A DNA stretch of 64,000 nucleotides from Antedon mediterranea (Eukaryota; Animalia; Echinodermata): assembly GCF_964355755.1 (NCBI RefSeq), contig NC_092673.1, forward strand, positions 28,269,648 to 28,333,647. Direction: 5' to 3'. The notes beneath the pieces are model-generated. The model did not search any database. It was not told the DNA's origin and was given only the letters and a program-made list of their open reading frames with translations. Made by a program: the position numbers and the translations under genes. Shown piece after piece: positions 21,046 to 44,821 of this stretch (position 1 is its first letter; every line of letters starts with the position of its first letter).

Positions 21046-24000
21046 TTAGCAATCTACATCAGTCATAGGTGTCTGTGGTCTGGAGTTCCCAAGATCCGAT
21101 GCTTCTCGTCTCATCTGACGTTGTTTACGTCTTCGTTCATTCTCAATTTTCATTTGAAACTTCTGAATTTTGTCAGCAATCTCAATGTTTGGGCTCAATG
21201 TCTTGTTTGCCAAAGGCTCCTTCGTTATCGGCGATGTAATCTTGGACTGAAGATAAGCTGTCAATGTAAAACAAAACAGAATTTCCAATTTGTATCAATA
21301 CAATACAAGAAATATCTGTCTGTCTAGTAAATAGTCCTAAATAGCCTAGCTCATTTATTTGATGTTTTTAGGCACATGTGGCCAAGGATTACCAGTAGTA
21401 AATAAATCGCTGGATACAGGGGCTATTTTGTGAACCAGTTCACTGGGGTAATCCCCTACTCGTCTCGAATGATGAACTGGGTTCTTTAATGTGCACACTA
21501 TATAATATAACTGTGTACACCGGACCTACGGTTTAGTCTTTATCTGAGAAGACTTGTTCCACCACCGGAACTGACAGCGGGTCGGCCTAGAACCCATGAT
21601 GATATTGTTTAGGTACAGTAACCTCTCGGCCATTTAACTCTCTTATATGGTGAATATTCATAAAGTGCTTCCAATTGGGTGCACTCTCAGATTTTTTGAT
21701 AAAGTCTTTGGGAAAAAAATGTCACGGCTTTGTCTTGCCCTCTAGTTTGGTTCTTACCATCAATATTTTTAAATTCATAAGTAACTCCGTCAGCAGCCGT
21801 TACTGGTTGGGTCATTATGCTTCTGCTTATTGGACACAGGAAGTCTGATGGCACCGTGACATCGTCAAAAGCACCCCTCTGAAAAATTGTGACAAAATAT
21901 CAATATGTACAATCCCACCAATAAATATAAACATGTTCTGATATTTAGAATTTACTGTACATAGGTTTGGAACTGACTTAAACACTTTTTTCTAAAATCT
22001 AAAAGTCCCCTCGATTCAGTTCATTTATACCAATAAATATATAACATACCATTTTTTGTTTTTTAACCTCTTTTGCGTTTCGAAGAAAACGTTTAATCTC
22101 CGTTTTGTTCAATCCCATATCTTTTAATTCCTCCGCTTCTATATATGGAATGTCATCAAAAACTACGAATGAATCTTTAAATGATTTGGCGTGACGGTCG
22201 AGGTCAATGTTCTTCAAAAATTTAAAAACTTTTTTATCTGAAGAGAATAAAAGATCATGAATACCATTATATTGTCCCCTAAAAAAAATATTTTGTTGAA
22301 ATATACCATTTTAATAAAAAACATAATAGTTATTCACTTTGACCACAAACTAGATAAAAAAAAAACAACTTATTTTCCTGAAAAAATGTAATTTAAAGCA
22401 AAAAATACCTAAATTGTCCGTCAGACAATAGTTTTTGGTTCAAATTAACCATTTCTTTTGTATTTTTATAAGTAAAATGATTATTTTTGTTATTTTTTTT
22501 TCTACAGAAGTGAATAAGTCAAGTATCATTTATTGTCATTTGTTTTTTTAAAAAAACATTGAAAATCCGTTTGCTCTGTTGGCGGATGTGCAGATCCAAT
22601 TATACGCGATGTGGTCTTGACTATTCTATTTAGGTCACGCTTTTCATTTTTCATTTTAACTTTATTATTATACAAAAATGGCCAATTAAAAGTCTAATTT
22701 TATTAATCTTTATTTTTCACACACATCTTTAAACCCTTTTCATATCTGCATATATTGTTACAAGTTTTAACATGGTTTGATCTCCAGACTTATTACATGT
22801 TTTCACACACAGATACATGAACCAGGAGAAAGCATAGTTTGTGCTCTACAGTATTGGATTACTATGATTGGTCAGTTTAACAACTTGGGACATCCCGGAA
22901 CAAAAACTTGTCGGTTTGTGGACCCCTGTGAAATCTCGGGATAAATTGTCTTCACACTATGCAAACCTGGTTACAATTACAACTTGTTACTTTTTGCAGG
23001 TGTGCGAAGATAGTGTCAGTTTAATGATTGTTCAAGGGGCGTTGTACCTACCACCATTGTTCTTTGCTGCTAAAGCCTCATGTCCATGATATGCAAAATT
23101 ATCAAATCCCCTTATTTGAATCTCTTCATACTTAGGAGGTGGTGTGCTGGGAACTAAGTATTCTGGTTCTGCGTGAATGGGTGGTAGTATTGGTCTGTGA
23201 AGGCTCGCCACATTTGGTCCAGAAATAGTCGGCAGTTGTTGTCGATTGATAGAGGGCAACATTTGTGCATACACATTTGTGCCATCCATCTTTACATATT
23301 CATTAGCTAGATAAAAACAATGCAATATTAGTTAGAATTTAGCAGTATAGAATTTAGAAAGATTATCTTTCGTTTTTATTTATTTTATTCAACCTTATTT
23401 ATTCAACCTTATTTATTCAACCTTATTTATTCAACCTTATTGATAGAGGGTAACCCTAAACAGCATATGCTGACAATCAAGGGGCCCTCATGATGAGTTA
23501 TGATAAGTGTGTGACAGTGGCTGTGTGTATACTAGTACACCGGGGTAACCCCTACTCGTCTCGAAAGATGTACTAGGTTCTTTAAAGTACACGTGAGCTA
23601 GATAACACTAGTTTATATACAAAATGGCTGACTGGGTTCATGTTCTATTGAACATGGTGTTTCTATTTTTCTTTTTAATTGTTGATAAGCCTATTTTGGT
23701 AGAAAAGCGTTGTACCTGATATCCTCTTTGAGTTCTTATCATCATCTTTGTTTACATTTGGCAATTCAACATCATATGGGTGTTTAATACAGTCATCATC
23801 AACTAGGTGTTCCGCTGGACCTAGTACATTATATATATCATTATTTTGTACATGCACATTATTGCCATTTTCTGTAAAATTTAAAAAAAACACAAATAAT
23901 AAAATGAATTTATAAAAAGACATTAATTATGTTTTCCTACACAGATAATTTAAGATTAGAGACATATGATCTGGATGTTTAAATAAAATTTAAGTTTAAA

Positions 24001-27000
24001 AATGTTTTATACAGTAGCTTATCCAGGGAGGTATTCTCCCTAGCTCATCTATCTATGCCTGTTAAATTAGGCTCTTGGCTGTTACTAATTTGGAGAATCT
24101 GCCACATGAATATTAAATCACTGTCCACACTATCAAACAAAAAAGTGTGATGTTCCAAAAAATGGTGGTGATATGCTTAAATATGGTAGTGATATGACAT
24201 GATCATGTCTATATATGGGCACATCACATTTTTGTCACAAAAGTTTTATAGTGTAGATAGAACATTTCCACCTTTTAACTTTGATCATTCGTCCATTATT
24301 TTATCAAAATATTTTGTCTAGTTTGGGTGGGCATCAAGTCTATTTTAAGTCTACACTATCAAACTAGTTTGAAAAAAAAATGTGATGTACCCAAACATTG
24401 TAGTGATATGCCCAAATATGGGAGTGATATGACAGAGTTTTAGTACCAGAAAGTACCAACTTTTAATCATTGATTTTAAGATTTTCGATAAAATTAAGTC
24501 TTGAGTTAAATCAAGATGTATTGAGGTATACCATTTATGGATTAAATTAAAACAGACTTACGGTACTGCACAGTCAATCCAGGTTGTCTGTAAAAAATAC
24601 CATTATATCAAATAAATCAGGAATAAGAACATATTAAAATGTCCATACAAAATTATTTCTAGAAAATAAAAAACTGCATTCTCACTCCCGAGGACGATCA
24701 AAGTATATTGATTGAAACGTCGAGAAACTCAACAGTTCTTTTCAGAACTAATACACGGGGTGTACCGCAAACTTAATATCAATATTTTAAATATGCAATG
24801 TTGTTGTTTTCCTTTTTCCATATATAATACAGTGCAGCGTTAAAATGAGTAAATAGTGTAAATAGGCCAGCAATAGTAACCCCCTACACCTACCCCTACC
24901 CCTACCCCCTCCTTCTCCTCAAAACTCACCATTGGCAATAGGACTGACCCTCTACAAAAATACCTGCACCGTTGGACCAGGTGCTTTAAAATGTGCATGC
25001 TATGTCAAGGAGCAAAGAAGGGCATCTAGTCAGACACTTTTTTTTTAAAACTTACCGTTTTCTTTTATTTCCCTTAAATTTTACAATGAGCACTAAAACA
25101 GTGAGAGCTACAACAATGAGTACAATTACAATTATAGCAATTGCAGGTACAGGGAAATTGTGTGGATCATCTTCTATGAGACCTATACAAAATGAAGAAT
25201 AGTAATGGTATTATTTACATTGATGGTTAGAATTTTTTTAGACACAGTTCACTCAAAACAAAACTAAAAGGTCCAAAAACCATGGAGGGAACCTCTAACC
25301 CCCCTCTGACCCACAAAACAAACAAAAAAGGTATGAACCATGGGGGCGGTTGAAGTTTAATTACAATTTCTGTAGAATGTGTAGAAGCAAAGTGTATGTG
25401 TGTATTTTTTTTCCAATAATATAGATGACAGTAAATCATAATGTTCACCTAATTCATGATGCATTTGACCGTTAAAAAAGGAAAAAGCATAAAAAAAAAT
25501 TAAATAAATTACTTTCAATGTCCAACTGATACACAGGCATGTCAACCTCTGTATTTCTTTTCAACCGGTCACTTGTAAGAATGAAAATAACGTTGACGAC
25601 ATTCGTTTTTGATGACCATTCTTTCCTGTCTTTAGTCCATTTAACAGCATTGTCATTGCCTTCATCTTTAACTGTTAACTGGTCATCATCTGCAAGATTC
25701 ATGCCTAACAAAGAAAAAATAATAATATAATTAGGGATAATTAATAATTGATGATAATTATTGAGAGCTTTATTGAATACAAAATCCCAGTACATAAACA
25801 ACAAAAACCCCAAAACATGCATCATGCAAATATACAGTAATAGGTCTACCCTATTTAGAAGACAACCCTATTGCGGGGACACCACTATTTAGGAGACACA
25901 CCTATTGCGGGGACACCCCTATTCAGGAGACACCCCTATTGCGGGGACACCCTTATTCAGGAGACACCCCTATTGCGGGGACACCCTTATTCAGGAGACA
26001 CCCCTATTGCGGGACACCCTTATTCAGGAAACACCCCTATTGCGGGGACACCCTTATTCAGGAGACACCCCTATTGCGGGACACCCTTATTCAGGAGACA
26101 CCCCTATTGCGGGGACACCCTTATTCAAAAGACACACCTATTGAGGGGACACCCTTATTCAGAAGACACACCTATTGAGGGGACACCCTTATTCAGAAGA
26201 CACACCTATTGAGGGGACACCCTTATTCAGAAGACACACCTATTGAGGGGACACCCTTATTCAGGAGACACACCTATTGAGGGGACACCCTTATTCAGGA
26301 GACACACCTATTGCGGGACACCCTTATTCAGGAGACACACCTATTGCGGGACACCCTTATTCAGGAGACACACCTATTGAGGGGACACCCTTATTCAGAA
26401 GACACACACCTATTGTGGGGACACCCCTATTGCGGGGACACCCTTATTCAGGAGACACACCTATTGAGGGGACACCCTTATTCAGAAGACACACCTATTG
26501 AGGGGACACCCTTATTCAGGAGACACACCTATTGAGGGGCACCCTTATTCAGAAGACACACCTATTGAGGGGACACCCTTATTCAGAAGACACACGCCTA
26601 TTAAGACACTTGACTGTGAAGTGAAAAAGGGAGAATATATGTTTTAACACTATTGCCAACCCTTATTTAAGGGACACTCCTATTACATTTTGTTTGGTTT
26701 GAAAGTGTCCCCTTAATATGGATTTTACTGTAACAGAAATAATGAATAAATGGTTTCATAAAGTAGTATGTATTACTATTATAAGAAATATACAGTCAAC
26801 CTAGGAATCGAGTGTTTCATATAAATCCAGCACATTTTGATAAAAGGTTAACAAATTATATCACAAAATTAGGTTAAAAATTGAAACCAAAGTTGATTGG
26901 GGTGACCCCATTTTAGTAGCTATAGTAACAGTGCCATCTCATATAGAACTAAGAAAATTGCATTGCTAGATGAAAAAGTATACATCTCATGTTACATACA

Positions 27001-30000
27001 GTATTTATAGTGTTCTCATGTTACATACAGTATTTATAGTGTTGTAGTCTAATTTGTAATCAACTCATTTAAATTGATTTTCATAATTAAATATTATAAC
27101 ATAAATAAATGCATTCAGTTTTAAATAAAACTAATTAATTTAGGAAATTTCTATTCTGGTTTCTATATTCCTTGACTCTGAATTGTTGTGTCAGTCAGTC
27201 CTGGTAGAATTCAGTTGCAACAGCACAACATAGCCTGTTACCAATTGTTTCAAACAAGTCAACTCCTCGAAATTGTAATACAGCTCAGGGTACTGTGCTA
27301 ATGATTTGTGTGAACAACAACTTGATAATTTCTTGAAGGGAATTCACTCTTGCCTGGTTTCTTTTAAGTTTAAGCTTATTAACAAATGTGATTTGTGATT
27401 TCCAGACAAACTACTCCTGTTGAAAAACCCTGTACATATAAAACTCCACTAATGCTGTTGGTAAGGTTATTGAGATACCCATAAAACTCTAAGAGAACAT
27501 GATGTGAAATACCCATGTAAAGTTACCAGTAAAACGCCAAGAGAGCATTTGTATGGTGAGTTTTACAGAGAAGGGGAAATACTAAGTAAAGATACCAGTA
27601 AGACTGAGTAAGCTTACCAAGTATGAATACAACAAGTTCAACATCAACGTTTAGAGCGCCAACAGAGATCCTTGTAATAATATTCTGTTTAGGATTATAT
27701 GCAATGATTACAAACATAATTGTTGTAATCACTTTTTTATCTACTAAAACACTTTGGAGGAAACAGAATGTGTTTATAATATCACTAGCATTGACTGATG
27801 TCATTTCAAGTGGTTCTTTAGCTGTTGAAATTATTTCAGGATTTGAAGAACAAGTTGAGCCATTTTCATTAGAAATGTTTGATCCAGCTTTGACATTTTT
27901 CTCTTCTGGAACTACCTCTCTATTAACCTTGACTGCGGTTGCTGCAGATAGGTATATCGCTTTAGTCTATGCGCCGTTACAATACGATATCATTGTGACT
28001 ATTAAACGGTGCATTGCTGTGTGCACTTTCCTGTGGATTTTACCTTTTTTTTTTTACTTATATGCTGGACTACAAAGAACGTGTTTAGTGTTTATGACTA
28101 GCTATTTTTTAACTTTCTGCATAGTAAGTTATCTGTACTACAACATCTACAAAAGTATAAAGTATCAACACAATGTAATAGTTCAGCAAAACTCACAAGA
28201 ATTAGAACGTTCTAAAAAACTTCTAAAAACATTTTTGATTCTAATTGGAGTCTTTGCCATTTTTTATTCCCCTGCTTTTGTGATTTGCATTTTATTTGGA
28301 GTGAAGTTTTATTCTGATTTGAACAGTCAAAACGTGAGCTTTGCGTACAGTACATTGGTGTTTGCTACGATCAACACCCTCGCTAATCCACTTGTTTACT
28401 GGTGGCGGCTTAAAGACTTTCGTTCTGTTCTTGTTGGATATTTTCATGCTTGCTCTCAAGTGAACCTTAGGCAGAGGTTTAGACAACAATCGAACACTGT
28501 CATCCCAATTAATTAAGGACAAAGATAATTAAAACCTAACTGTTCAAATTAGAGAGTGAGTGAGTGGCCGAGCAGTTACGACAGTTGAACTGTAATTCCG
28601 TAGCCATAACATCTGCAAGGGTTCGAGGCTCACTCGCTCCATGGTTCTGGTGGTAGAACAAGTCTTCTCAGATCAGGACTATAAACTGTAGGTCCAGTGT
28701 ACACATAGCTCATGTGCACTTTAAAGAACCTAGTACATCTTTCGGAAGAGTAGGGGGTTACCACGGTGTACTAGTCCACACAGACACCCACGGTCACATA
28801 CCGGCGACCAAACCGGTAACCATATCAACTCCTTTAAGAGCATGGAGGGTGATTGGCCACCCACAAGGGCGTCGGTTCAGGAGAACCAACAACAGCATCC
28901 AGCAAAAACTCGTGCCAGGTCCAGAAAAGAGATAGGCACCGCTGGGTTGATATGGTATATGCCTGTGTATCGTATCATGATGAGTACTAATGTATCTCAC
29001 CTGCTACACCTCTACGACCACCCAGGACAACGAACGAACTGTTCAAAGACAAAGTTAACTATCAAAAATATAATTTAAGCAAATATTTTTTTTTTTTACG
29101 TACAACCATCAAACAGATATATGACTGCCATTTTGAAGAACCCCAACCCTGTTGGTATCACTTAATTTAATGTCTAGTGAGTTATTATTAGCCCTTTAAC
29201 TTAAAGATATATTGTCCCCCTAAACATTTTTAATTTTTCACATTTTTTATTCACCTAATAGTTATTCACTTTGACCAAAAACTGGATCGAAAAAACAATT
29301 ATTTACCTAAAAAAAGAAATAACTGAAAACAAAAAATACTTAAATTGTCGGACAATGGTTTTTGGTTAAAATTAACTGTTTATTTTGTCTTTTTATAAGT
29401 GAAATAATTATATTTTGGGTTTTTTTTTTTACAAAAGTGAATAACTGCAAAATGGTCTATTTAAAGTCTGATTTTATTAATCTTCATTTTTCATGTTTTT
29501 GGGGAACAATACATCTTTAGATAATATAAAAGGATAAAGTAAGTACAATACCGTTTAGTTTTATTTGGATTTTGTCACTTTCTGTAAAGCTTCTAATCGT
29601 CCAGGAACAGATCTTATCACCTACTGTAACTGTAATTATCATGTTGAAATCCTTATTGCAACTTATGTCATAGGCTGAAAAAAATATTCAATCAAACAAA
29701 GGTCATGTAAGGTCAAATGGGTAAAACATAAAGCTCTGTCTACACTATCAAACTTTATGTGACAACAAAAATGTGATGTGCCCATATATGGACATGATGA
29801 TGTCATATAACTACCATATTTAAGCATATCACTACCATGTTTGGGCACTCACAGTTTTTTTGTTAAACTAATTTGATAGTGTAGACCGAGCTTAAGGCCC
29901 AGGCAATCCAATAATTCACCTAATGTACAGCAGCCTTTAATATACTGCCAAAAACACTGATAAAAATTAGGCTTAGGTAGGAGCGTATAAGGTGTTATAG

Positions 30001-32041
30001 GCTGCTTATGTACTGGTTACTAAGTGTGTCTGGGACGGTGAACAGTCAGCTTAATATAATCTCTATATATAAATAATAAGTGCACTTGGTTTTGTTATCC
30101 AGCATTTTATTTGTAACATTGGAGAAAAAATTGTTTAGTAAAATTGACACACAAAGCTGCAAAAAGAAATATTGCTATCTTACAAAAAGATTCCTCGGTC
30201 TCAATGTAGAACTTGCACATTGTTTTTGTTATTGTTTTTTTGGTTTTTGAAACACTTGTAGTAAAGCGTTGCTTCTCTGTAGGTTTGGTTGGCCTTACAG
30301 TTGAGGTTGACCGACTCACAGTTGAAGTTGACCGACTCGCAGTTGAGATTGAGGGACTCGCAGTTAAAGTTGACTGACTCGTAGTTGAGGTTAGGAGACT
30401 TACAGTTGTGGTTGACCGACTTGCAGTTGACCAACTTGCAGTTGAGGTTGACGGGCTTGCAGTTGAAGTTGACCGACCTGCAGTTGACATTAATGGAACT
30501 GTAAACATTGTAGAATGTTGTGGGTTTGTTGGTATGTTGGTAGTTGTTGTCAATTTGGTAGTTGTTGGTATTTTGGTAGTTGTTTGTATTTTGGTAGTTG
30601 TTTGTATTTTGGTAGTTGTTGGTATGTTGGTTGTTTTTGGTATGTTGGTAGTTGTTGGTATGTTGGTAGTTGTTGGTATTTTGGTTGTTGTTGGTATGTT
30701 GGTAGTTGTTGGTATTTTGGTTGTTGTTAGTATTTTGGTTGTTATTGGTATTTTGGTTGTTGTTGGTATGTTGGTTGTTGTTGGTATGTTGGTAGTTGTT
30801 GGTATTTTGGTAGTTAAATCTGAAATAAATTACCAAAACCTACAATTATTCCCAGATCTATACAGTAGTGAAATAACAAGAACAAATTTCAATCCGTTTT
30901 CATTATGCCACTGACTAGGTATAAGATAAGGTGCCAGTTTTGTACCCCAATGTGTGTGCTATTTTGTTGGTAACATCAACATTATCACAAGCAGTGCATT
31001 AATCTTTGCTTGTCGTGAATTTGTTTTTTATGCATCATTGATTTTATACATTGTGAGGGAGCGCTGTTTGTATAAAATTTTGTATATGGTGGTATGACTA
31101 CACTACCACGGCATTAATGTGTATGATAGAAATAAATTGATAAAAACATTTTTCTTTTCAAGTTTATAATTATGAAATATGTACTATAAACAGTTGGAAG
31201 AACATTTTGCTGTCAAAAGAGCTAGGCCTACTCACATCACTCGTATATCAACATACCTGGGGCTAAAATGCAGCCTGCTGACAGGGAGATGTCATCAATT
31301 GCAATGTCCCCCATAGGTCCATCTGCTGTCGCCCTGATAATAAACTATAAAAACAACAAAGTCTTAAGCTCTGTCTACACTATCAAACTTATGTGACAAA
31401 AAAATGTGCCTATATATGGACATGATTATCTCATATCACTACCATATTTGAGGCCATCACACTTTTTTTTCAAAACTAGTTTGATAGTGTAGATAGAGCT
31501 TTATAGTAATGTACATGTACAGTTGACTCAACTCTAAAGCCTGTTTAGACCCCGCTTAAATCAGCGCCTGAAAACAGGGAGGTGGGAGGTGGTGGATATT
31601 TGGGTAGTTGTCAGAAAATCAATAAAAAGACAATTTGCACATATTTTTTCCAAGCTTTTAAAACTGCAGCCATTCGCAACCTTTGAAATCATACCTGGAA
31701 GTCTGTATTTATAGGTACATTATTATCTGCAGCAGATAACGAAGTATACCTCCAGAAATTTCTGGAGAATCTCTCTGTTTTAAATGTAGGAGATGCAGAA
31801 GTTCTTGTGGATGTTCCAATTTCTAGATGTTCTACATCTTGTCCTTCCATATGAAAATATAAGCGAAGCTGCAAAGGAAAAGTAACTTTTTAATTTGCAT
31901 ACTTTTTTCTGTTATTTTTATTAAAATTAGATCAACTGCAGTAACTCAACTCTCCCTATTTTCCTTTCTTCTTTTTTTAAAATCAAACAATCAGCAAGGG
32001 TTCGAGGCTCACTCGCTCCATTGTTTCTGGTGGTAGAACAA

Positions 32042-32075
<34 letters not shown>

Positions 32076-35000
32076 AGTGTACATCTAGCTCATGCGCACT
32101 TTAAAGAAGCTAGTAAATTTTTCAAGACAAGTAGGGGGTTACCCCGCTGTACTAGTACATCATAGCCACTGATCATAACTGTGACCTCTGGGAGACAAGT
32201 CTTTTACTGAAAAGGTTACCCAGTATAAATAAATAACAAATTCAAAAACAAATTTAGAATACTAGAATATATCCCTAAAAAACAAGTTTCTAAAAATACA
32301 GTATCTGAATTGGATTTTGTTTATATTGCTGGATGATTCGTGTCTCATTCCTTTAAAATGAAATTATTTTAATATGCTAAATAAAATGGGTGAAATACTT
32401 ACATCACACGAGTCACTATAGTACAACCACGGACTCACAAGGTCTGCATAGTCTCCATCATTTGTGTAAGAAGTCTCAAGATAGGCATATGAACCTTTAA
32501 AAAAATATAATTATTATTGAACATTTTTAATGAGGTCGACTCTAAACACTGACAACCCTTTAAATACAAAAAAAGTATGTAAAAGCAACAAAAAATGTAT
32601 TATTTTTATTTATTTATTTCTGTCTTTATTTTTTTATTTTATGTCTCCTATCAGATAGGTGGTAATCCCCTTGATACAGGGGCTATTTTGTGAACCAGTT
32701 CACCGGGGTATTTCCCTACTCTTCTCCAATAAACTGGGTTCTTTAAAGTGCACACAGGTTATAACTGTGTACACTGGACCTACGGTTTATAGTCCTTATC
32801 CGAGAAGACTTGTTCCTCCACCAGAACCCTTGCCGATATTGGCTCTTTAGGTACGGTAAACGGCGCCCCTGCCTTAACCGCTCGGCCATTTGACTCTTGA
32901 GCACTTTTAGTGGATATCATATTTTTTTTGTCACATAAGTTTGATAGTGTAGACAGAGTTTAAGACTTGTACAACATTTGATCTGTGTATGATGCACTAC
33001 ACAGTAAAATATGAAATCTCACCAAACTGGTTTTCAAGTGTATGGTCTACGGATGGTCCTGTGCCCTGTGACGGTGTACCACCAGAATTCATAATCCATT
33101 CCAAGTCGTCTTCTACACTTTGTTTCCAATCACAAAAACCGTTTTCAAATGTGCAATAGCCAACATCTTAACAAAGAAGAATATATATTTATATTTTTAT
33201 TTATTTATTTAACTTCTCACTAAGATGTACATTAGTGAAGGATGGGACCAACAAGTGGTAAACACCTCTAAAACGATACAGTCCAAATTGCACAATTAGT
33301 GTGACAGTGGCTGTGTGTGTGTGTGGACTACCCCCGGGTAACCCCCTACTTGTCTCGTAAGATGTACTAGGTCTTTTAAAGTGCACATGAGCTAGATGCG
33401 TACACTAGACCTACTGTACGATTTATAGTTAATATCCGAGAAGACTGGTTCTACGACCAAAACTTAATTACGGTTCCACTGTCTTAATTAACCGTTCGGC
33501 CACTCACTCACTTCACAGAGCTTCGAACGACCAATGATAAAAATATGTCATTTTCATTCATTGATTGTTCAGGGATATTGTGACCTTTTACAAAAGTATA
33601 CTACTGTATTGTTTGTATAGTGTATGTGATGTTGAGAAACACAAAATGTAACTTACGGTCTTCGCATAGTGTGGCATTCTCATCCGATGCATCAAAGCAA
33701 TGATGAATATGATCACATATGTAATCATAATGAATACAAAGACCATCATCACATGTAAATATTGGCCCTGTCAATTCACATTCATCCGAAGCTAATGAAC
33801 ATAGAATATAGTACTGTTTTAAACTTTTAATGATTCAATTAATGATAGTTATAGCATTTCACAATCAATTACTGTAATTTGTGTAAACACCCAGCTTTGA
33901 ATAAACCCCACTCAACACCCCCCAGGTTGTAATGGTAACGACTCTGTATTTAATTTTTTTCTTTTCTTTAGGCACATGTAGCCAACGATTACAAATAGTA
34001 ATGATCTGCCCTATTAGATAGGTGGTAATCCCCCTGATTTATTCAAATAAATATGGTATTTCCACTGCAGAAGTCAATTTTTTACATTGTATTGTGGGAT
34101 GCTTTCTAAAGTCCTATTACTGTTTAGGTTTTGTGCCTGTGAGTTGTGTAACAATAGTTACATTAGTAAATTGGTCAACTTATCTCAATTTCAAACATAT
34201 TTCACTGTCATCTAAAGTAATTTATTTTTTTGTTTTTATTGTTATTGATATAAATAACTTCTTATTACCTTATTGTTTTTAAGGGTCTCGGTTTAAAAGC
34301 TTTGATTATTTTTAGTTTCCTTTTCCATAACTTTTTGATGACATATTTGTACACATCCTTAGTTTTATGGAATAAATTAATTAAAACCAAGCTTACCAAT
34401 GATACATCCTGGAGTCAGAGATAAATCGTCCAATCCTAAATAACCATTTTCTGTAGTAGGGATAACAGCCTCAAAACACACATGGAAAGATTCAGAGGCA
34501 TTGATACTAATGTCTTCATAGCCCCATTGGCTGTAAGAAGCAAACGTAGACGAGATTGTCCATAAATCCGATGGTGATGTTGTTCGTAGTATTAAACTAA
34601 TTTCTCCTGCAGTCGCAATGTTTCGATAATAATAAAATCGGACCTTAAAAACAAGTATTTTTAAAATATTGACACAAAATAACTAATATTGGATGATGAT
34701 ACATAATGTAAAAAAAATCCTGACAAATCAACAATAAAAAAAACTTTTATTGAAAGAAATATTTATAGAACAGTACTAGAAAAAATACCCACCCTGTTTG
34801 TGGAGTATCAAAAATGTGTATAACAAACAAATGTATAAACCCTTTTCTTTCATATTATATAAATACTAGTTCTTAGCAATCAAAGTAGTGCCTGTTGTTT
34901 TAAGTTTGAAATGTGTGAACAATATCATAATTGCAAACAAAAAAAATTTAATATTTTCTATGATAAAAAATCAAAGCCTGGATAGAATTTCAAATTGAAC

Positions 35001-38000
35001 ATAGAATATAGTAATGTTTTAAACTTTTAACCTTCAATTAATGATGATTAAAATTCGTAAAACACAACTTACAGAGCAATCTATGGAGTTTGCTTCAAAC
35101 TTTCTTTCGTAACAAAGTTGAGCTTTCTTCCCAACATTCGAAGAAGCATCAAGTAAAAGGAAGTAACCAGCTGTAAAAAAGTAATGTAAAATAAAATGTT
35201 AAAATTGTATTGTTTTCAAGAAAAATGAAGATTAATTAAATCAGACTTTGAATAGATTATTTTGTTTGGAAAGTGGAAGTGGAAAATCGGCTTAAGTTAG
35301 GCCATCAATTTCAAGGAAGTTATAACATGAGGGTATAAATCAACAAGAAAAAGTTAGAGAGGGACTATTCCCGATTGGTTGAATAAATATTAAGAAACAA
35401 TAAAATACTCATACTTGTCTGGTCATTGTGATCTGCAGATGGTCCAACGATGGATGATTGACCATATGTTCTTGACCAATCAATTCCATTTGTAACTACA
35501 TTTGCCCATTCACCAAAATCGGTTTGGAAGCTGTTTCTACCAGGATACATTTCTGGAAAAATATCAAAATAAAATTTAATCAATTAAATTAAATTTCATA
35601 GCATCAGTAGATGATGTTGAAGATGATGTTGACAACTATGATGATGTTGACAACAATGATGATGATGTTGACAACAAGGATGATGATGTTGACAACAATG
35701 ATGATGATGTTGACAACAATGATGATGATGTTGACAACAAGGATGATGATGTTGACAACAATGATGATGATGTTGACAACAATGATGATGATGTTGACAA
35801 CAATGATGATGATGTTGACAACAATGATGATGATGTTGACAACAATGATGATGATGTTGACAACTATGATGATGATGTTGACAACTATGATGATGATGTT
35901 GACAACTATGATGATGATGTTGACAACAAGGATGATGATGTTGACAACAATGATGATGATGTTGACAACTATGATGATGATGTTGACAACTGTGATGATG
36001 TTGTTGACAACAATGATGATGATGTTGACAACTATGATGATGATATTGACAACAATGATGATGATGATGTTGACAACAATGATGATGATGTTGACAACAA
36101 TGATGATGATGTTGACAACAATGATGATGATGTTGACAACTATGATGATGATGTTGACAACAACTATGATGATGATGTTGACAACAATGATGATGATGTT
36201 GACAACTATGATGATGATGTTGACAACAATGATGATGATGTTGACAACTATGATGATGATATTGACAACAATGATGATGATGATGTTGACAACTATGATG
36301 TTGACAACAACGATGATGATGATGTTGACAACAATGATGATGATGTTGACAACAATGATGATGATGTTGACAACAAGGATGATGATGTTGACAACAATGA
36401 TGATGATGTTGACAACAATGATGATGATGTTGACAACAATGATGATGATGTTGACAACAATGATGACGATGTTGACAACAATGATGATGATGTTGACAAC
36501 AATGATGATGATGTTGACAACAATGATGATGATGTTGACAACAATGATGATGATGTTGACAACTATGATGATGATGATGTTGACAACAATGATGATGATG
36601 TTGACAACAATGATGATGTTGACAACTATGATGATGATGTTGACAACTATGATGATGATGTTGACAACAATGATGATGATGTTGACAACAATGATGATGA
36701 TGTTGACAACAATGATGATGATGTTGACAACTATGATGATGATGTTGACAACAATGATGATGATGTTGACAACAATGATAATGATGTTGACAACAATGAT
36801 GATGATGATGTTGACAACAATGATGATGATGTTGACAACAATGATGATGACATTTTTTTAAATGATGACAATTATGATGAAAATAATAAATGATTACAAA
36901 GCCTTGAAAAAAACCAAACAGACTTACCACAAATTGACCGTTCTTCATCTGAATTGTCACCACAATTATTTGCAAAATCACATTTTTCGCCCGAGGGGAC
37001 GCAATGGATGTTGTCACAGGGAAAGGCATCATTACCGATGTCCTCACACCGGTCAATGATATCTAAAAATGTATTACAATCATCAGAAAATTAAAATTTT
37101 TTTACTAACTGTACGTGTAATAAAAATGGGCAAATGCTTGAAATAAATGGAACAACAATAATGTTAGAGGCAGTCGGCCCGGCAACCTCAAGCCTCCTGC
37201 CATTTGGTACAGCACTTCAGTTCACCATTTTTAAACCCTGCAACATTTTCAATTCCCATTGGGGTCAATACAAAAAAGGAAAACAGGTACTGTCTTCAAA
37301 ATAACTAAATTTATGTTTAAATATTAGAGGACAGAGAGAAAAAGAAGAGAATATAACGTACCACTACACTTTAAGTTGACAACAGTAGTAGCATCACAAA
37401 TAGTGTTGATGACTCCCACTCCATCATTCCCACAATCCAACAGACTAGTCTCATTTCCGAAACACTGAATGTTATCAATTATTGGGTCTTGATCATCAAA
37501 AACTAGGTACTCAGTTGGACTTGAATCAGCCTTTCGGTACCCCAGTTGAATACAGGCTACAATTCCATCCGTTTCAAGGTCGAAATTACGATTGCAAATG
37601 GAGCGCCAGTTACCATTAATGTAGACGTCAATACGACCTTGGTTGGTGTATGAAGATTGTTGATGTTTGACAATCCGCAGGCTTCCATTCCCTGTACAAA
37701 TTAAAACATTTATAATGATAATAATCAATTTTTAAAAGAACACAACTTTAGGTATTTTCATTAAGGCTATTCTGGAGAAAAATATAAGTATATGATATGA
37801 CGATAAAGTATGATAAGTATAAACAAAAGTATGTCTTAACTTCAATTAATTGACATGACCTAACTTGACCTACGTCGTCATTAAAATATCTATCTCTATA
37901 TTAATCTTTGTCAGACTGGGAAACCTTATCCTGTGGTGTGCCACAAGGTACTAAGCTTGGAGAAATTGTGTTCCGTGCCGCCATCAATGATGCTGTGAAA

Positions 38001-41000
38001 GAAGCAATCTGTGAAAAGTGGAAGTTCGTTGATGATCTTTCACTGGGCGAGGTAGTTAACTCTAATGCAACGTCTACACTACAACATGATGTTGATGATT
38101 TGGTCGAATGGGCAACCATGAACAAATTTCAATTGAACCCATCAAAATGCAAACAACTTAAATTTTGTTTCATGAAGTCGCCACCCTATATGACACCTAT
38201 CAACATAAATGGCTGTGAATTAGAAACAGTTAACTATGCAAAAATATTCGGTGTTTTCATCCAGGATGATTTAAAATTTGATGTCCAGGTTGACCATATC
38301 CTTAGTAATGGAGGAAGACGTCTACACATGCTTAGCCTTTTAAAACAGTTTGGGATTCCTTTTGAAGACCTTGCCCAAGTTTACACCACATATGTTAGAC
38401 CAATTTTCGAGTATGCAATACCAGTATGGCACTCTAGTCTTACTGTTGCGCAGACAAATGCCATAGAGTCCATGCAAAAACGTGCATGTAAGATAATTTT
38501 GGGTAAAGATTACCAAGACTACAACACTTCCCTTAACATTTTGAATATTAAACGACTAGATGAACGCCGCGAAAATATATGTCGTAAATTTGCTACAGAT
38601 TGTATTACATCTAATAAATTCAAGGATTGGTTTATTAGAAATCCTGAGCTTTCTGTTAGACTTAGGAAAAGAAAAGAATTTGTTGAGCCCCTATGTAAAA
38701 CAAACCGATACTATAATAGCCCTAAGCTTTATCTTACACACCTCCTTAATGAGAGATAGATTTTAACTCAGTAAAACTAAAGACATTTTTGAAGACGTAT
38801 AAATAAATTAAACATAATATGTGAATATGTACAAATAAATATAATACTACTGTAAATAACTTAATAACTCCATAATTTTCACATTTTCTAATTTTATCAA
38901 ATTTCATAATCTTGTAAATAAATAATCAATTTCCATATTTCCCTTATTTAATTAAAATGTTTAAATTTGTAGATAAATTTTAGCTAAATTTGTATTTTTA
39001 TGTATTTTTCTTGTGCAATATATTTGATTCCACTTTTATTTGTTCTTTGATTTCTATGTGAACTTTATATACTGTTTTATGCCTGTTTTAAATGTTTTTA
39101 TATTTGTAAGTATCATGTAATTCAGCCATTGGCTGCGATTTTGATATGCAATAAAATGAAATGAAATGAAATGAAATTAATATTATACGCACCAAACTTT
39201 TCACATGTATTTGAAAATGAAATGTCATCAATTGCTATGTCGCCTGCGTAGCCTGAGCCACGCACAGCCTCGATAATAACCTTTAAAAAAAATTATGATG
39301 GTTTATTCATAACATTATTTTCATGAAGACTTTTGAACGTCCAACATGATGATAAAGAGACCAGCCAACCATTTTAAACAAGTTATTAAACTCTTTTTGC
39401 ACTATCTAATTTATGGAACCTTAGTCTTTTTATGCAATATTGGACGAGGGAAGAGATATTATACATTTTGGCATCTAAAGGCCAACCCAGACAGCGTCGT
39501 ACGACGAGGCCCGACCAGTCGTCTCATCGGGAGGAGAGGATTAAACCTGTTTAAAGTTCTTCCGACGACCTAAAAACAACACCCGGCGCTATCACAATTC
39601 AATTAGCACCAACGAATCAAGACGTTTTGTCTGAGTTGACCCGTTAAATAGTTGATATAGTATGATGTATTGTGGAAGATATGTAGACATGCACTAATAC
39701 AAAGATCAATAATTTGGAATTGACATGTTGGTTTATCATCATTACCCCATCATGAAACGTGCAAGCTTTTCATTGCTATTAGTAAGGGCATGTGGTGCAC
39801 TGTGTTGGACGTTCGACTACTGATCGTGAGATCGAAGTTCGAATCCAACTATCGCCGCATTGCTTGTATCCTTAGGCAAGATACTTTACTTACGTTTGCC
39901 TCTCTCCACCCAGGTGTTTAAATGGGAACCCGGTTAGATCAAGACACAACTTTGCGCTGATTACTAGCATTATGGGAGTATGTTTGCATATGTGTTTGAT
40001 CCAAAAAAATTGACTGGAGTAATAATGTTCAGCGCTTAGAGGTTTCACAACATTAGGCGGTATATAAATCCAGGATATTATTATATTAGCAATCAAATTA
40101 AATGCTTTACCTGGAATTTGTAAGTCACATTAAATATTAAGGTTTGTCCTATCCAAGATGATCCTTTAGTTCCGGCTATGCTCCAGATTTCACTTTCACT
40201 TTGATCACTAGCAACGACTACGTAAACGTGTAAAGACCCTATGTGTTGTCCATACATGTTGTAGTAGTACGTCATCTATAACAGAATATACTTTCTAGCA
40301 TTAGTAGGCCTAAAGCATCTAGAAAATGACACAAAAGTCAGGAGGGGAAAAAAGCAAAAGGCTTCCTACTTTCTAAGAGTTTTGTGTGGTTAAGAATATC
40401 AGATAGTCTATATTGTTTTGACAACTCTTAAAGATGTATTTTCCCCCAAAAACATGAAAAATGAATATTAATAAAATCAGACTTTAAATAGGCAATTTTG
40501 CAGTTTTAATAAAGCTATTCACTTCTGTAAAAAAAAAACCAGAAAATAATTATTTCACTTATAAAAAGCCAAACGAAATGGTTAATTTTAACCAAAAACC
40601 ATTGTCTGATAGACAAGTTAAGTATTTTTTGCTTTAAATACATTTTTTTAGATAATTTAAGAAAGTAGAATTCAAGAAAGTAAATTTGTCTCACTCTCAG
40701 AAAAGGAGTTGGAAGAAAAAAAATCATGCATGCATATGGTTTCGTTTTTGATTGGCTAGAATTAATTTGTAGTGGTGTCACACAGAGGTATGTTGTTATA
40801 TGTACGAAATGAAATTATCAAATTTCTTACGGCACATGTAGAATCCAAAGGATCTATAACAGGACTAATTATACGGGCGTTGGCATTAGGATCGACGTTA
40901 GTTGCTTCAATGTACAGATAGTGGCCAGATGATGAACCGTAAGTGTGGTCTCCATATCGAGGACCAGTGTTTGATGAGGCAGTCTGTCCACTCTGCGGTG

Positions 41001-44000
41001 TCCAATTAAAATCATCTGCAGACATTTGTTGCCATTGACATAGTCGACTGTCTGCACTTTCAAAATTACAGGTCAGTGGTTTGGCAGTGCCTGAAAAAAG
41101 TGCGTTTATATTGTTAAAACTTCAGAAAGATAGTGGGTCAGGATTTTAAATAATATCATGTTTGTGCCAACCTAACTAATGTCTCATATTATTTTTGTCA
41201 GTGATTCTCTTTCAGAGAACATGAAAAATAATATTCACATATACTATGTGGTAGTGCCAGTCTGTACCTACTGTAGGTGGTCCTACTACAGGCCTAGCCT
41301 ACATTTGTTCATCTGTATGCTAAGTTCTATAGGCCTACTTCACTACATAAATACTCTTACTTTTTAGCTAGACATAGTATAGTAAATGTGTTGTACTCAC
41401 ACTGTAAACATACAGACAGCAACCAACTAGCCTAACATAAACTAGGGTCTAGCTTAGTAAAAGGTAGGCCTAGCTAGGTAGGCATAGTTATACCCACCCA
41501 GCATGCAGGGCCTAGCTAATTCATCCACTTGCACAATTTCGGACTTTAGTCGCAATTTGATACAAATTGCATAACCATGGACTAAGTATAAATTATTAAT
41601 TCATGCACTTTATTTCAACACAGAAAATAACACACGGAACGAGCTAGTCAAGTAGCCTAACACCACGCGCACAAACCACCACAACATTAACAACCACCAA
41701 AGATAGTTTGCGCACACACGCCCTTCCAGTTAATTCTGATTGGTTAGTAGTTCATTACGATGACGTCAAAATTGTTGCTACGAAAACTATTTAAAAGAAA
41801 ATTTGTGTTAAAAAATTACGTTCGTATATTAACTCCATTAATAGGCTCTGATAAATATATGAACGTATTTTAACCAATGATTTTCGTCGTAAAACAATTT
41901 TGTGGTGGCACAGGTAAAATCTCCGCCATGGTTGAAAAATGAAGACGATCATTGCAGTCACGAGCCGTAAGACATAAATCAACGGACAAAAGAACGGAAG
42001 AAGACACGGTAAAGGCCTAATTATGATTGGGCATAATTGTATGATAATTGTCGAAAATGAATAGCAAAGCAAATATAAGTTAAAAAGTTCTTATTTCTTC
42101 TTTGTTCTTATTGACGTAACAGTTTTAAAAATTATTGTCCCTCTGAAAAATATTTTTTATTTCAAATTTGTTTTTGAATGTGTCATTTTATTGTCACATA
42201 ATACTAGTTAGTTTACCGGAAAAAATGTAATTAAAAGCAAAAAATACTTCAATTGTCTGTCAGACCATGGATAAAAGAATTAGAAGGATATGCATCGACG
42301 GCGACATCAAACGATTTTACAACGCGCTTGCCTATACTAAAGCACTGCTGCCAATCAAACATTGAACTCCGTGTCTCTAACCGCGGCCCTCTGTAGAACG
42401 CTGCGAATCAACTGCTACATTTTTTTAGACCAAAACGTAACCATGTAGAAATCGTATGCGCAGTCTGAATGTTCTATTGACATGTCTGCGTCGATGATTA
42501 ATTGACAACAAAAATGTATTGCTGACGGCTTACGACTGGTAATTTTAAGTAGTTGGTAATATTAATAAAATATGCAATTTTTATATTTGAATTATCATTA
42601 TTTGCCTGCCATCTTCTGTAAAAATTGCGTTAATCTATAGAATATTAAATTATGCATTTGACCATGTATGTTGTTAGCGTGTCCGGTGTCCACACATAGA
42701 ACAATCGTGTTTTTAATATATGGCTAAGCAGTGGTTTCTTCATAAATCTCCTTAATTATCGATGTAATTATATTTAAATTTTAGTGCCTGGTGATTGGCT
42801 AGTGGTTATGTCATCCACATCACATCCAATCACCGGGCATAATTGAATGAAAACAGCGATCCCTGATCCGGGATTGGCTGGCTATGTATAGTTGCGATAC
42901 GTTACACCTAGCGGTCGTTTTGAAAAGTACACGCATGGCAAACTTAATCACGAACAAACGAAGTACCTATTATTATTCACACAAGAAGTAAGACAACGGT
43001 GAGTATATAGATCATGATTACACGTTGTATCTACTGCACTTAATATTAACCAGGCCTACCTAGGCAGTATCAATGTCGGCAAATCATATGGTTTACTAGT
43101 AAGCCTAGAAGGCCAGGCCTAGTATCCTTGCTGATTTTGTAATTTTACATGTAGGCTGAGGGCTGAGACAACAAATAGTTATTGTCTCAGATGTAGGGCT
43201 ACTACAGGTCATAAAATGCTCCTTTAATGTCATAAAAACATTAGCGTAGATCAATCGCGGCAGAAACCTGTACTAATTATTACAATTATAGCATCTACAA
43301 TTCTAAGCCAAACAATAATATAGTATTTTATCTGGTATATTGATGAAGTAAGCCTACACTAGGGTCTTCACAATAACGTACAATGTAATTTAATAACTGT
43401 TTTCAATAAACATTATACTCAGCAGTGGCGTGAGGCAGAGGCCAACAAGGTTAAATGTCGTTGCACATGTGCAGTAAACAATATATTAGGCACGCGACCG
43501 TTTCGTTGTTACCATGCGGTTAATTAAACTGTAACATTGTGACTCGCTAGCTCTGTCGGCGAGAGTCAAGGAACCCTTGATCTCACGTCGATGCATATCC
43601 TTCTATTCTTTAATCCATGGTCAGACAATGGTTTTTGAGTTATAATTAAACGTTTCTTTTCTCTTTTTATAATGTGAATTTTGTTACAGAAGTGAATAAC
43701 TTTGATATGAAACAGACTCAATTTAGTTTATTTTATTGCTAAGGTCAAGTCTGGGGGTCAATTCATCACGCAAGTGTGAAGTATCATATTACAAACAAAA
43801 ACTTTCATGGACTGTTTTGATAATAATTCAATGATTATCTGACAGCGAAATACAGTATTGTCATGGGACTCATAAATACCAGAAATGCAGCTGGTACCTA
43901 TAAATTATAGTCGAGTTTCCAGTTTAGCAAAAATGTCAAAGTGTAGTACTATAACTGCTGCTTGATTTCATCTATTATAAAGGAGTCATCTCGTGTGACG

Positions 44001-44821
44001 TAGCGGGCTAGAACAGCAGCGTGAAAATCATATCCCGTAGTGAAACAAGATTTATTTGTTTTCCTTTCGGTGCATGCAATTAAAGACTTTTTTGTGGAAC
44101 GCGGAAACGATTTTGAAGAAAATGTGTCGCAAAAGTTTAATTTTCCGCAATACTAAATTTTAAACCATTAGGTTTATTTGACGATTTTTGGTGAATGATG
44201 ATTTCATTCATAAATAATCAATGATAAATAAAATATAATCAACAGGCAATTATTGTCAGACGTACGTGTTTTTTTTACTACAAGAGCACAAAGATATATT
44301 TATTGCTTGTACAGTAGTACAATATTCTATTTTCTGCTAAAGTCGGTTTATCAACAGAGAGTACAAACTCGCCAATTATTACAGGATGGATACATAAACT
44401 ATTTTATAATTATCGTGCTTAAAACTAAGTCTCATTTGAGGCTTAGGGAGTGGAGTTGAAAGAGTCATGAGCTAGTTACAACACTGGGTCAGGATTGAAC
44501 CCGGACCTTGAGATTGAGAGGCAAGCACAGCTCCACGTCTCTATAACGGGGATTCGTATAAAGATAGAGCATGATAAATGTAATACGTATACTAAGAGAT
44601 ATATATATTCCCAGGGGCCTAATATATCCCGATAAAAACTCAATGATAAAATATAAGAGTGATAAAAATAATTTATAATTGACGACGCGAGCTAGCACCG
44701 ATGGATTAATAACGTAACATAAAATGATAATAACGGAATGTTTCTTACCATTGACGATATCTGTGAAATAAGATGATAAAAGAAAACAGATGCCACCGAA
44801 GACAACCCGAAAAGCACCCAT
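21046..44821 (-). CDS. Type-I membrane protein: SP-MAM-SRCR-LDLa-MAM-LDLa-MAM-mucin-CUB-like-TM-Tyr motifs-SAM-U-box (~1400 aa, 24 exons)
   Basis: Exons: 44749-44821 (signal peptide); 40831-41090, 40111-40275, 39193-39280 (MAM1, …GDIAIDDI); 37362-37691 (SRCR, GRIDVYINGNWRSICN…ACIQLGY); 36928-37062 (LDLa, CDFANNCGDNSDE); 35415-35552, 35073-35170, 34397-34643 (MAM2); 33657-33791 (LDLa); 33023-33166, 32403-32494, 31695-31868, 31257-31344 (MAM3); 30184-30819 (Thr/Ser-rich); 29552-29674, 25513-25704 (CUB-like, weak); 25056-25182 (TM); 24562-24587; 23716-23871; 23052-23306; 22050-22237 (SAM); 21758-21878 and 21046-21257 (U-box). All junctions are GT-AG and phase-compatible; total 4203 nt. Confidence 0.8.
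22270..22731. mobile_element. Kolobok-like MITE (degenerate copy)
   Basis: Same body as 29205-29516 (ATTGTCCCC…AATAGTTATTCACTTTGACC…GTCAGACAAT…ACATCTTTAA). Confidence 0.6.
24685..24724 (+). other. Penelope-type minimal hammerhead ribozyme motif, degenerate
   Basis: CTC-CCGAGGA-C-GATCAA-AGTATA-TTGATT-GAAACGTC-GAG gives helix I (CTC/GAG), helix II and a palindromic ACGT helix III. The core CUGANGA is altered to CCGAGGA. Confidence 0.5.
25835..26730. repeat. ~34-bp minisatellite (~25866-26600) expanded inside a TA-flanked Tc1/mariner-type MITE
   Basis: Unit CCTATTG(C/A)GGGGACACCCTTATTCAG(G/A)AGACAC(A/C), with 33-bp variants. The enclosing ends are TA|CAGTAA (25833) and TTACTG|TA (26732). Confidence 0.85.
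27623..28516 (+). CDS. Intronless class A (rhodopsin-like) orphan GPCR, 297 aa, nested antisense in an intron of the MAM/U-box receptor gene
   Basis: Seven hydrophobic segments. SLALTD (TM2), ADRYIAL..PLQY (TM3), LW..P (TM4), FAIFYSP (TM6), NPLVY..R.KDFR (TM7/H8). N-terminal glycosylation sequon NTT. Confidence 0.9.
   Translation: MNTTSSTSTFRAPTEILVIIFCLGLYAMITNIIVVITFLSTKTLWRKQNVFIISLALTDVISSGSLAVEIISGFEEQVEPFSLEMFDPALTFFSSGTTSLLTLTAVAADRYIALVYAPLQYDIIVTIKRCIAVCTFLWILPFFFYLYAGLQRTCLVFMTSYFLTFCIVSYLYYNIYKSIKYQHNVIVQQNSQELERSKKLLKTFLILIGVFAIFYSPAFVICILFGVKFYSDLNSQNVSFAYSTLVFATINTLANPLVYWWRLKDFRSVLVGYFHACSQVNLRQRFRQQSNTVIPIN
28555..28790 (+). mobile_element. tRNA-derived SINE with a Deu/Nin-like core (other copies ~21400-21640 -, 23510-23600 -, 31990-32190 +, 32670-32900 -, 33300-33510 -, 48630-48825 -)
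   Basis: A-box GTGGCCGAGCAGTT, B-box GGGTTCGAG. Core GTCTTCTC.GAT.AGGACTATAAAC.GTAGGTCC…TTAAAGAACC…GAGTAGGGG.TTACC.CGGTGT resembles the DeuSINE/Nin domain. Confidence 0.8.
29205..29516. mobile_element. Kolobok-like MITE (further copies ~40432-40680, ~42134-43700 interrupted, ~46010-46110)
   Basis: TTAA|AGATATATTGTCCCC … GGGGAACAATACATCT|TTAG: TIRs with a TTAA-type target. Confidence 0.65.
29732..29892. mobile_element. Harbinger-like MITE, family A (representative; ~19 full or partial copies in the window)
   Basis: TIR AGCTCTGTCTACACTATCAAACT. TSD is TAA here and TTA at 56616-56776. Other copies near 11349, 12010, 13317, 14200, 15494, 24121, 24349, 31367, 32910, 47630, 51921, 54016, 54130, 55209, 57530, 58138, 59084 and 62008. 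Confidence 0.9.
35605..36852. repeat. Intronic 21-bp minisatellite (GATGATGATGTTGACAAC(A/T)AT)n, ~1.25 kb
   Basis: Direct tandem array with a variable number of GAT triplets. Lies between two phase-matched exons of the receptor gene. Confidence 0.97.
37905..39176 (+). mobile_element. 5'-truncated CR1/L2-group LINE (RT C-terminal half, ORF 37908-38759) with a (GAAAT)n tail
   Basis: GVPQGTKLG…IND…KFVDD RT motifs, LNPSKC, YVRPIFEYAIPVW…IESMQKRA. AT-rich 3' UTR ending AATAAAATGAAATGAAATGAAATGAAAT. Confidence 0.9.
39483..39648. mobile_element. Small MITE with imperfect TIRs
   Basis: CAACCCAGACAGCGTC … GACGTTTTGTCTGAGTTG. GC-rich relative to its flanks. Confidence 0.45.
39785..40088 (+). mobile_element. 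CORE-type SINE with an L2-like tail
   Basis: tRNA head with B-box AGTTCGAATCC. CORE-like TCCTTAGGCAAGATACTT…CTCCACCCAGGTGTTTAAATGGG. Tail AGCGCTTAGAG…GCGGTATATAAAT…(ATT)n. Confidence 0.75.
42266..43619. mobile_element. Non-autonomous P-superfamily-like element (1354 bp) nested in a Kolobok-like MITE
   Basis: ~35-bp TIRs CATGGAT(A/T)AAAGAAT(T)AGAAGGATATGCATCGACG. 7-bp TSD GTCAGAC at 42259-42265 and 43620-43626. The host MITE sequence resumes after the TSD. Confidence 0.8.
44375..44540 (-). mobile_element. tRNA-derived SINE, third family (second copy ~63710-63835)
   Basis: The two copies share TAAACTATTTTATAAT.TATCGTGCTTA.AACTAAG.CTCATTTGAG…CAGGATTGAACCC.GACC…ACAGCTCCAC. B-box GGTTCAATCC on the minus strand. 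Confidence 0.6.

Follow-up and report, generated by a model that had tools for sequence, protein, structure and literature searches.

A predicted single-pass receptor of the crinoid Antedon mediterranea joins a scavenger receptor-like ectodomain to a cytoplasmic SAM domain and U-box

Structure and surroundings of the gene

The window, by which we mean the whole 64,000-nucleotide stretch of Antedon mediterranea DNA analyzed here, contains a minus-strand gene of 24 exons that runs from an ATG at position 44821 to the end of a stop codon at 21043 and encodes a single frame of 1,400 amino acids with 0 internal stops. When the gene was rebuilt from the window, all 23 introns proved to be GT-AG and phase-compatible, bearing out the 24-exon frame of about 1,400 residues proposed in a preliminary description of this DNA. 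The NCBI model XP_071948078.1 (Antedon mediterranea) agrees with the rebuilt one at 0 mismatches, minus 114 amino acids of the mucin exon; the start of that exon (exon 15) lies 342 nt later, at 30477, in the NCBI X2 model. The NCBI name, MALRD1-like, covers the MAM and LDLa domains and leaves the SAM-U-box tail unmentioned. A donor for exon 21 at 23048 was discarded because it breaks the frame; the donor at 23052 is correct by both frame and RNA. The features of the gene, in order of transcription, are as follows.

44749..44821, minus strand: exon 1, start codon and predicted signal peptide (called on a hydropathy of 1.54 only)
39193..41090, minus strand: exons 2 to 4 (41090-40831, 40275-40111, 39280-39193), MAM domain 1 (Pfam MAM on each exon)
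37362..37691, minus strand: exon 5, SRCR domain with six cysteines (63.8 bits)
36928..37062, minus strand: exon 6, LDLa repeat 1 (23.5 bits, cutoff 24.1; six cysteines and acidic motif)
34397..35552, minus strand: exons 7 to 9 (35552-35415, 35170-35073, 34643-34397), MAM domain 2 (Pfam)
33657..33791, minus strand: exon 10, LDLa repeat 2 (32 bits)
31257..33166, minus strand: exons 11 to 14 (33166-33023, 32494-32403, 31868-31695, 31344-31257), MAM domain 3 (Pfam)
30184..30819, minus strand: exon 15, Thr/Ser-rich mucin stalk and start of a CUB-like domain (3' end joined to exon 16 by RNA)
29552..29674, minus strand: exon 16, middle of the probable degenerate CUB (RNA contig; CUB likeness)
25513..25704, minus strand: exon 17, end of the probable degenerate CUB, with a furin-type RLKR site at 25556-25567 (RNA; CUB likeness)
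25056..25182, minus strand: exon 18, predicted transmembrane (TM) helix and basic stop-transfer residues (Kyte-Doolittle 3.7; RNA)
23052..24587, minus strand: exons 19 to 21 (24587-24562, 23871-23716, 23306-23052), predicted disordered Tyr/Pro-rich tail with PPxY at 23128-23139 (RNA; low pLDDT; motifs)
22050..22237, minus strand: exon 22, SAM domain (Pfam, RNA, structure model)
21758..21878, minus strand: exon 23, first half of the U-box (30.7 bits; 121-letter gap in the RNA contig)
21043..21257, minus strand: coding part of exon 24, second half of the U-box, long basic helix, conserved RPxTPxTDV end, and stop (Pfam, RNA, motifs, model)
19855..21042, minus strand: 3' UTR, at least (X1 contig that also carries exons 18 to 24)

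Other features share the introns and the flanks. An intronless rhodopsin-family GPCR frame (27608-28516, plus strand; 297 amino acids from an ATG at 27623; 7tm_1, 95 bits) is nested on the opposite strand in intron 16, and a reverse-transcriptase remnant (37905-38756, plus strand; RVT_1 at 27.5 bits, below cutoff) lies in intron 4. Two intronic minisatellites occupy 25849-26593 (34-base unit, about 22 copies) and 35618-36850 (21-base unit, about 58 copies), the latter yielding spurious long reading frames. The neighboring genes are a flavin monooxygenase (4290-6094), followed by a short partial copy of its end (6214-6408), a DAXX-like gene (8936-11738), a proteasome subunit (13854-15282), a HEAT-repeat gene (47627-60402) that resembles SCYL1, and a synaptobrevin (61592 onward). 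No functional link of these neighbors with the receptor is evident in the 64-kb window.

Evidence for a single transcript

Five runs cover the 3' part of the gene; none is recorded as RNA, and run X1 was judged to be RNA from its spliced contigs. An X1 contig of 2,290 nt, at a depth of 391, aligns piecewise with exons 18, 20, 21, 22, and 24 and continues into the 3' UTR as far as 19855; gaps within the same record measure 121 letters, equal to exon 23, and 35 letters, equal to exon 19 plus a 9-letter insertion. The length expected for such a transcript, 2,276 letters, comes with the listed indels to 2,290. The TM exon, the SAM domain, the U-box, and the 3' UTR are carried on one spliced contig, which shows the continuity from TM to U-box that the preliminary description had singled out for checking. 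The other place singled out there, the intron at 25705-29551, is crossed by a 182-nt X1 contig over exon 16 (depth 417). One overhang of this contig is identical to the last 30 letters of exon 15 and the other to the first 28 letters of exon 17, lengths just below the 31-letter bridging rule. Because the X1 contigs join exons 18 to 24 and exons 15, 16, and 17, 8 of the 23 introns are backed by RNA, all from one run of one study. Exon 17 has a contig of its own (depth 408) and the contig in intron 17-18 has a depth of 17, a pattern that fits splicing at this joint but falls short of showing it. Run X2 has no contig on exon 16 and is uninformative there.

These contigs bear on the explanation that prediction merged two neighbors, a MALRD1-like receptor and a SAM-U-box gene. 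Such a merge could hide at the 17-18 joint or in introns 1 to 14, which lie outside the 8 introns backed by RNA; it is opposed by the presence of the TM segment and U-box on one spliced contig and by the similar depths of the contigs on exons 15 to 17 and on the tail (391, 408, and 417).

Allelic differences were seen at two places. At the donor of micro-exon 19 (24559), run X3 carries 9 additional bases, a length with which X1 also agrees; in the TM exon, at 25130, runs X1 to X3 carry 3 additional bases and further changes close by. Both insertions keep the frame.

Ectodomain, stalk, and membrane segment

The encoded protein has the order signal peptide, MAM-SRCR-LDLa-MAM-LDLa-MAM, mucin stalk, probable degenerate CUB, one TM segment, disordered tail with PPxY, SAM, and U-box. 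Pfam profiles run on single exons and on the whole protein found the three MAM, one SRCR, two LDLa, SAM, and U-box domains that had been read from the sequence in the preliminary description, LDLa repeat 1 taken alone staying below its cutoff; matches to Drf_FH1, AF1548-like, and TMEM154 all fell under their own cutoffs and were rejected. Phase-1 introns flank every SRCR, LDLa, and MAM module, as expected of shuffled extracellular modules. One strong TM segment (3.7 on the Kyte-Doolittle scale over 19 residues) and a signal peptide called from a modest hydropathy predict type I single-pass topology, with an ectodomain of about 1,050 residues. Among the proteins of solved structure, those closest to this ectodomain include CD163, DMBT1, and an SR-C-like MAM protein. 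No zona pellucida (ZP) domain was found by Pfam, either here or in the related protein of the hemichordate Ptychodera flava described below.

The segment between the stalk and the TM helix has no Pfam match. It aligns with both CUB domains of the Ptychodera protein, which occupy the equivalent place ahead of the TM segment, beating 1,000 of 1,000 shuffles, and it does not align with MAM or SRCR controls. We therefore regard it as probably a degenerate CUB, absent from the preliminary description, which had likewise missed the PPxY motif and the conserved C-terminal motif; AlphaFold leaves the region unfolded, with pLDDT mostly below 50.

A furin-type R-x-K/R-R site lies inside the membrane-proximal CUB in 3 of the 3 family members that have the region and is the sole such site before the TM segment in each. 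It is the first of two observations that would suit cleavage near the membrane, after which the working unit would be a tethered or released SAM-U-box fragment, possibly nuclear; against this, the site falls in different loops in the crinoids and in Ptychodera.

Predicted cytoplasmic tail

The tail ahead of the SAM domain is predicted to be disordered (low pLDDT) and forms a tether of about 150 residues. A PPxY motif occurs in all four family tails, at shuffle rates of 0.07 to 0.22 each and in species that are related in pairs, and each tail contains 8 to 13 tyrosines. Presumably the PPxY and tyrosine motifs have a trafficking or recruitment meaning in these tails. The tyrosines would also suit an immune or adhesion signaling receptor in which the U-box built nondegradative K63-type chains as a scaffold, and did not clear partners. 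TRAF6 and Act1 form K63-type chain scaffolds downstream of other receptors, U-boxes can pair with Ubc13 (a CHIP-UBC13 structure is among the fold matches), and the ectodomain is scavenger receptor-like in its nearest solved relatives; since PPxY and YxxPhi-type motifs suit trafficking at least equally, we consider signaling of this kind unlikely and favor a receptor that marks membrane proteins for uptake.

The SAM exon alone scores 29.9 bits with SAM_2 (cutoff 20.5) and 27.5 with SAM_1 (cutoff 23); in the whole protein SAM_2 passes at 23.7, and SAM_1, at 22.5, is just short. Both crinoid SAM domains lack the glycine ahead of helix 5 that is kept in the hemichordate, WDSUB1, and jellyfish SAMs, a residue to which we ascribe a role in SAM-SAM contact. 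The clustering through SAM suggested in the preliminary description has thus kept its domain but become doubtful as a mechanism.

The U-box scores 58 bits as a whole against a Pfam cutoff of 21.4, and, as first read from the sequence, it is split over two exons. The first half scores 30.7 bits (profile positions 1-31) and the second 22.7 bits (positions 35-70), so that each by itself exceeds the cutoff. In the same whole protein Pfam gave no RING or PA domain at E values up to 10. SAM and U-box are modeled at pLDDT >90, with a 33-residue helix leaving the U-box. The U-box model superposes on an E2-bound plant U-box at 0.6 Å over 67 columns, overlays the U-boxes of OsCIE1, CHIP, and UBE4B at 0.6 to 2.0 Å, and has one cysteine in the domain; the predicted fold is that of a canonical U-box, RING-like without zinc ligands. 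All four family members have the same core residues (C, P, I, M, P, D, T, Y, I, S, P, T, L, P). Across the SAM and U-box, the four differences listed for X1 are all synonymous. The loop-2 proline (SPIT) is invariant in 52 aligned sequences and aligns with the UBE4A proline, which we take to be the one needed in UBE4B and CHIP. A conserved U-box proline is required for activity in both of those enzymes (PMC7010608). The position of the activating Arg of UBE4A is occupied by K, G, G, and K in the four members, and across 145 counted U-boxes by N in 60, G in 30, R in 28, and K in 13 (131 of 145).

The missing Arg, together with a PPxY retained in all four tails, would fit a U-box that is a pseudo-ligase or dimerization module, a NEDD4-family ligase recruited through PPxY doing the ubiquitination. 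A domain of that kind is hard to square with a core and loop-2 proline retained across two phyla and with a fold that closely matches E2-bound U-boxes, and we think it quite improbable; an active U-box ligase remains the reading that we prefer.

The helix after the U-box has 10 to 15 Lys or Arg in 34 to 36 residues in 4 of 4 members, and the protein ends in the conserved motif RPxTPxTDV. So basic a helix is the second observation that would suit a cleaved and possibly nuclear fragment; however, it also contains 6 to 10 acidic residues, in the manner of a charged single helix, and with the furin-type site shifting between loops we judge a cleaved working unit distinctly unlikely next to an intact receptor. 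Weak ubiquitin matches on the last exon (4 to 7 bits per stretch) were rejected as chance.

Distribution and age of the family

When the last 479 residues were used as an HMMER query, 6,148 matches came back, of which the best 150 were listed and 20 of these named. The RPxTPxTDV end occurs in 5 of 158 stored proteins, from four species (Antedon, Anneissia, Glandiceps, and Ptychodera). Anneissia japonica, a second crinoid, has a 415-amino-acid model that is 44% identical and comprises the CUB end, TM, SAM, and U-box, and Glandiceps talaboti, a hemichordate, has tail-only models in two isoforms, so that most or all of the ectodomain is missing from both annotations. The protein of Ptychodera flava, 1,947 amino acids long and named DMBT1-like, has MAM-SRCR-LDLa-MAM-LDLa-MAM, four more SRCR domains, two CUB domains, TM, SAM, and U-box; across 715 columns of the ectodomain it shares 35% identity with the Antedon protein, and its SAM and U-box are above cutoff. 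The U-boxes of the three orthologs score 45.8, 55.5, and 65.8 bits. The SAM-U-box tail is conserved in these four species of two phyla, and because crinoids are echinoderms, and Ptychodera and Glandiceps hemichordates, the gene is older than the split between them; with a second crinoid and two hemichordates, it is both older and wider than one lineage.

The split NCBI models of Anneissia and Glandiceps are what a merge of two neighboring genes in Antedon might lead one to expect, but the Anneissia fragment itself covers the CUB end, TM, and U-box, and the whole order is found in single models of Ptychodera and, as tabulated in a supplement discussed below, of two corals. Together with the spliced contigs, these models make a merge highly improbable, and we treat the gene as one receptor.

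Twenty of the stored proteins have a SAM match; six near-copies were omitted, and the other 14 were used for a tree of the SAM-U-box region (unrooted, 14 rows, 140 columns). In it a 99/99 branch separates the four receptor tails from WDSUB1. A crinoid has its own WDSUB1 (P0090); origin by fusion with WDSUB1 finds no support in this small unrooted tree.

Word-based protein searches gave no ortholog, returning self or unrelated U-box proteins only (1 of 17, 3 of 262, and 1 of 672 candidates), and a metagenome scan with the four-member alignment gave 597 pattern matches, 0 of them confirmed. No coral member was recognized among the best 150 of 6,148 matches or the stored proteins, nor any member from a standard model organism among the 20 named of those best 150.

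Other U-box proteins came to light beside the family. A jellyfish WWE-SAM-U-box protein (Rhopilema esculentum, P0154) is another architecture beyond the seven main animal U-box genes, and two unrelated proteins in JGI and Logan records (P0015 and P0065) combine a long N-terminal region with a TM segment and two U-boxes; they are possibly independent membrane U-box proteins. From Nematostella, an orphan U-box gene, Nv_UBOXa (PMC3087547), and a MAM-SRCR-MAM-LDL-CUBx3 model without the tail (PMC5119243) have each been listed in a different paper; the two could be halves of one ortholog.

A model for the receptor

Our preferred reading, to which we give a probability of roughly 0.55, is a single-pass receptor-type E3 ligase that tags itself and neighboring membrane proteins for uptake when its ectodomain is engaged. 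Anatomy and its conservation are what we observe, and from them we infer every functional step. The ectodomain would bind either a ligand (protein, lipoprotein, or microbial) or a partner receptor, and engagement would bring the tails together in a cluster, to which the long helix that follows the U-box, and perhaps SAM, would contribute. The U-box would then take a ubiquitin-loaded E2 and, on its flexible tether of about 150 residues, tag its own tail and co-clustered membrane proteins, after which the PPxY and tyrosine motifs might bring in the endocytic machinery along with adaptors or WW-domain ligases, and the complex would end up in lysosomes.

Speaking for a receptor-type E3 are the spliced contig from TM through SAM to U-box, the agreement with the NCBI model, and the domain order in Ptychodera, as well as the score, fold, core residues, and synonymous differences of the U-box, the PPxY in 4 of 4 tails, and the RING precedents considered below. 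Speaking against it are the K or G at the activating-Arg position, the divergent crinoid SAM, RNA from one run, the ectodomain-poor annotations of Anneissia and Glandiceps, and a U-box far from the membrane relative to RING E3s.

A broader reading, which we advance tentatively and with some doubt, is that of an ancient unnamed family of "receptor U-box ligases," reaching from corals to hemichordates and crinoids, in which a ligand at the scavenger-type ectodomain directly switches on the fused U-box. If true, the family would be to ubiquitin what receptor kinases are to phosphate, and the names MALRD1-like and DMBT1-like would have concealed a class of single-chain receptor E3s that do without a RING. 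Because ectodomain and enzyme are on one chain, the protein offers a direct test of whether an outside ligand can switch an E3 on.

Comparison with described systems

The architecture is not strictly undescribed, because it has been tabulated once for corals. Neubauer et al. (2016) list Acropora digitifera aug_v2a.03894.t2 and A. millepora c000424 as MAM, SRCR, LDL, CUB, TM, and UBOX (PMC5119243, supplement file 2) and class these proteins as "SRCR + CUB," DMBT-like scavenger receptors, with UBOX mentioned in the text (PMC5119243). In the available portions of that paper the word "ubiquitin" occurs once, as a legend abbreviation, and ligase function draws no comment (PMC5119243). The likeness of the coral proteins to those of Ptychodera and Antedon is one of domain order, on which any orthology would rest; the numbers of SRCR and CUB repeats differ, and no SAM is given for the corals in the accessible material. 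The statement in the preliminary description that no MAM-LDLa receptor with a U-box was known to have been described does not stand as worded, in view of these two proteins. Its related statement, that the well-known animal U-box ligases are soluble and that membrane E3s such as RNF43/ZNRF3 and MARCH use RING domains, agrees with the accessible parts of a review, where receptor-type E3s have RING domains only (PMC12458338), and of the 2010 census of animal U-box genes, where no membrane U-box ligase of animals is named (PMC3087547). That census has seven main genes, and "transmembrane" has 0 occurrences in its available text (PMC3087547). Beyond the coral listing, our literature search, outside of which most subscription papers lay, returned no other description of such a protein and, in the portions of papers available, no naming of this architecture as a family or as a ligase; the accessible parts of PMC10855680 and PMC13228809 added nothing on it.

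Receptor-type E3s have been described, in the available parts of the sources, with RING domains only, and single-chain RING receptor-type E3s that clear surface receptors are established (PMC12458338; bioRxiv 10.1101/2020.05.25.113944). RNF43, ZNRF3, and GRAIL/RNF128 are, like the Antedon protein, type I single-pass proteins with ectodomain and E3 on one chain (PMC12458338). The Antedon protein resembles RNF43 and GRAIL in design and is not a member of their class, having no RING. The ectodomain of RNF43, ZNRF3, and GRAIL is a small PA domain; the Antedon protein differs from all three in its U-box in place of a RING, and in its added SAM, long tether, and multidomain ectodomain of about 1,050 residues. 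The RING of the receptor-type E3s reviewed, as far as the accessible text describes it, sits close under the membrane, whereas the Antedon U-box lies far out on its tether (PMC12458338). In MEGF8-MOSMO-MGRN1 and ATRN-MGRN1 a large multidomain ectodomain is tied to receptor ubiquitination, as it would be here (PMC12458338; bioRxiv 10.1101/2020.05.25.113944), but there the RING ligase is a separate tail-bound protein, and in Antedon the ligase domain is fused.

The tail recalls WDSUB1, in which SAM is directly followed by U-box (PMC3087547); WDSUB1, however, is soluble and has WD40 repeats, none of which Pfam finds in the Antedon protein, and it stands apart in the tree. The ectodomain recalls MALRD1-like and DMBT1-like proteins, with MAM and LDLa repeats in the former and SRCR and CUB in the latter, names that ignore the SAM-U-box tail. 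DMBT1 itself ends in a zona pellucida domain (PMC5119243), the place of which is taken in Antedon by TM, SAM, and U-box. Receptor-type E3s are few, and those named in the available sources are all RING proteins. A U-box receptor retained in two deuterostome phyla, and matched in domain order by the coral listing, would represent a new class of membrane ligase and a further member of the U-box set of animals. The vertebrate scavenger receptors have very short tails, according to the available text of the coral paper (PMC5119243), whereas the crinoid protein would be a scavenger-type receptor that carries its own putative signaling enzyme.
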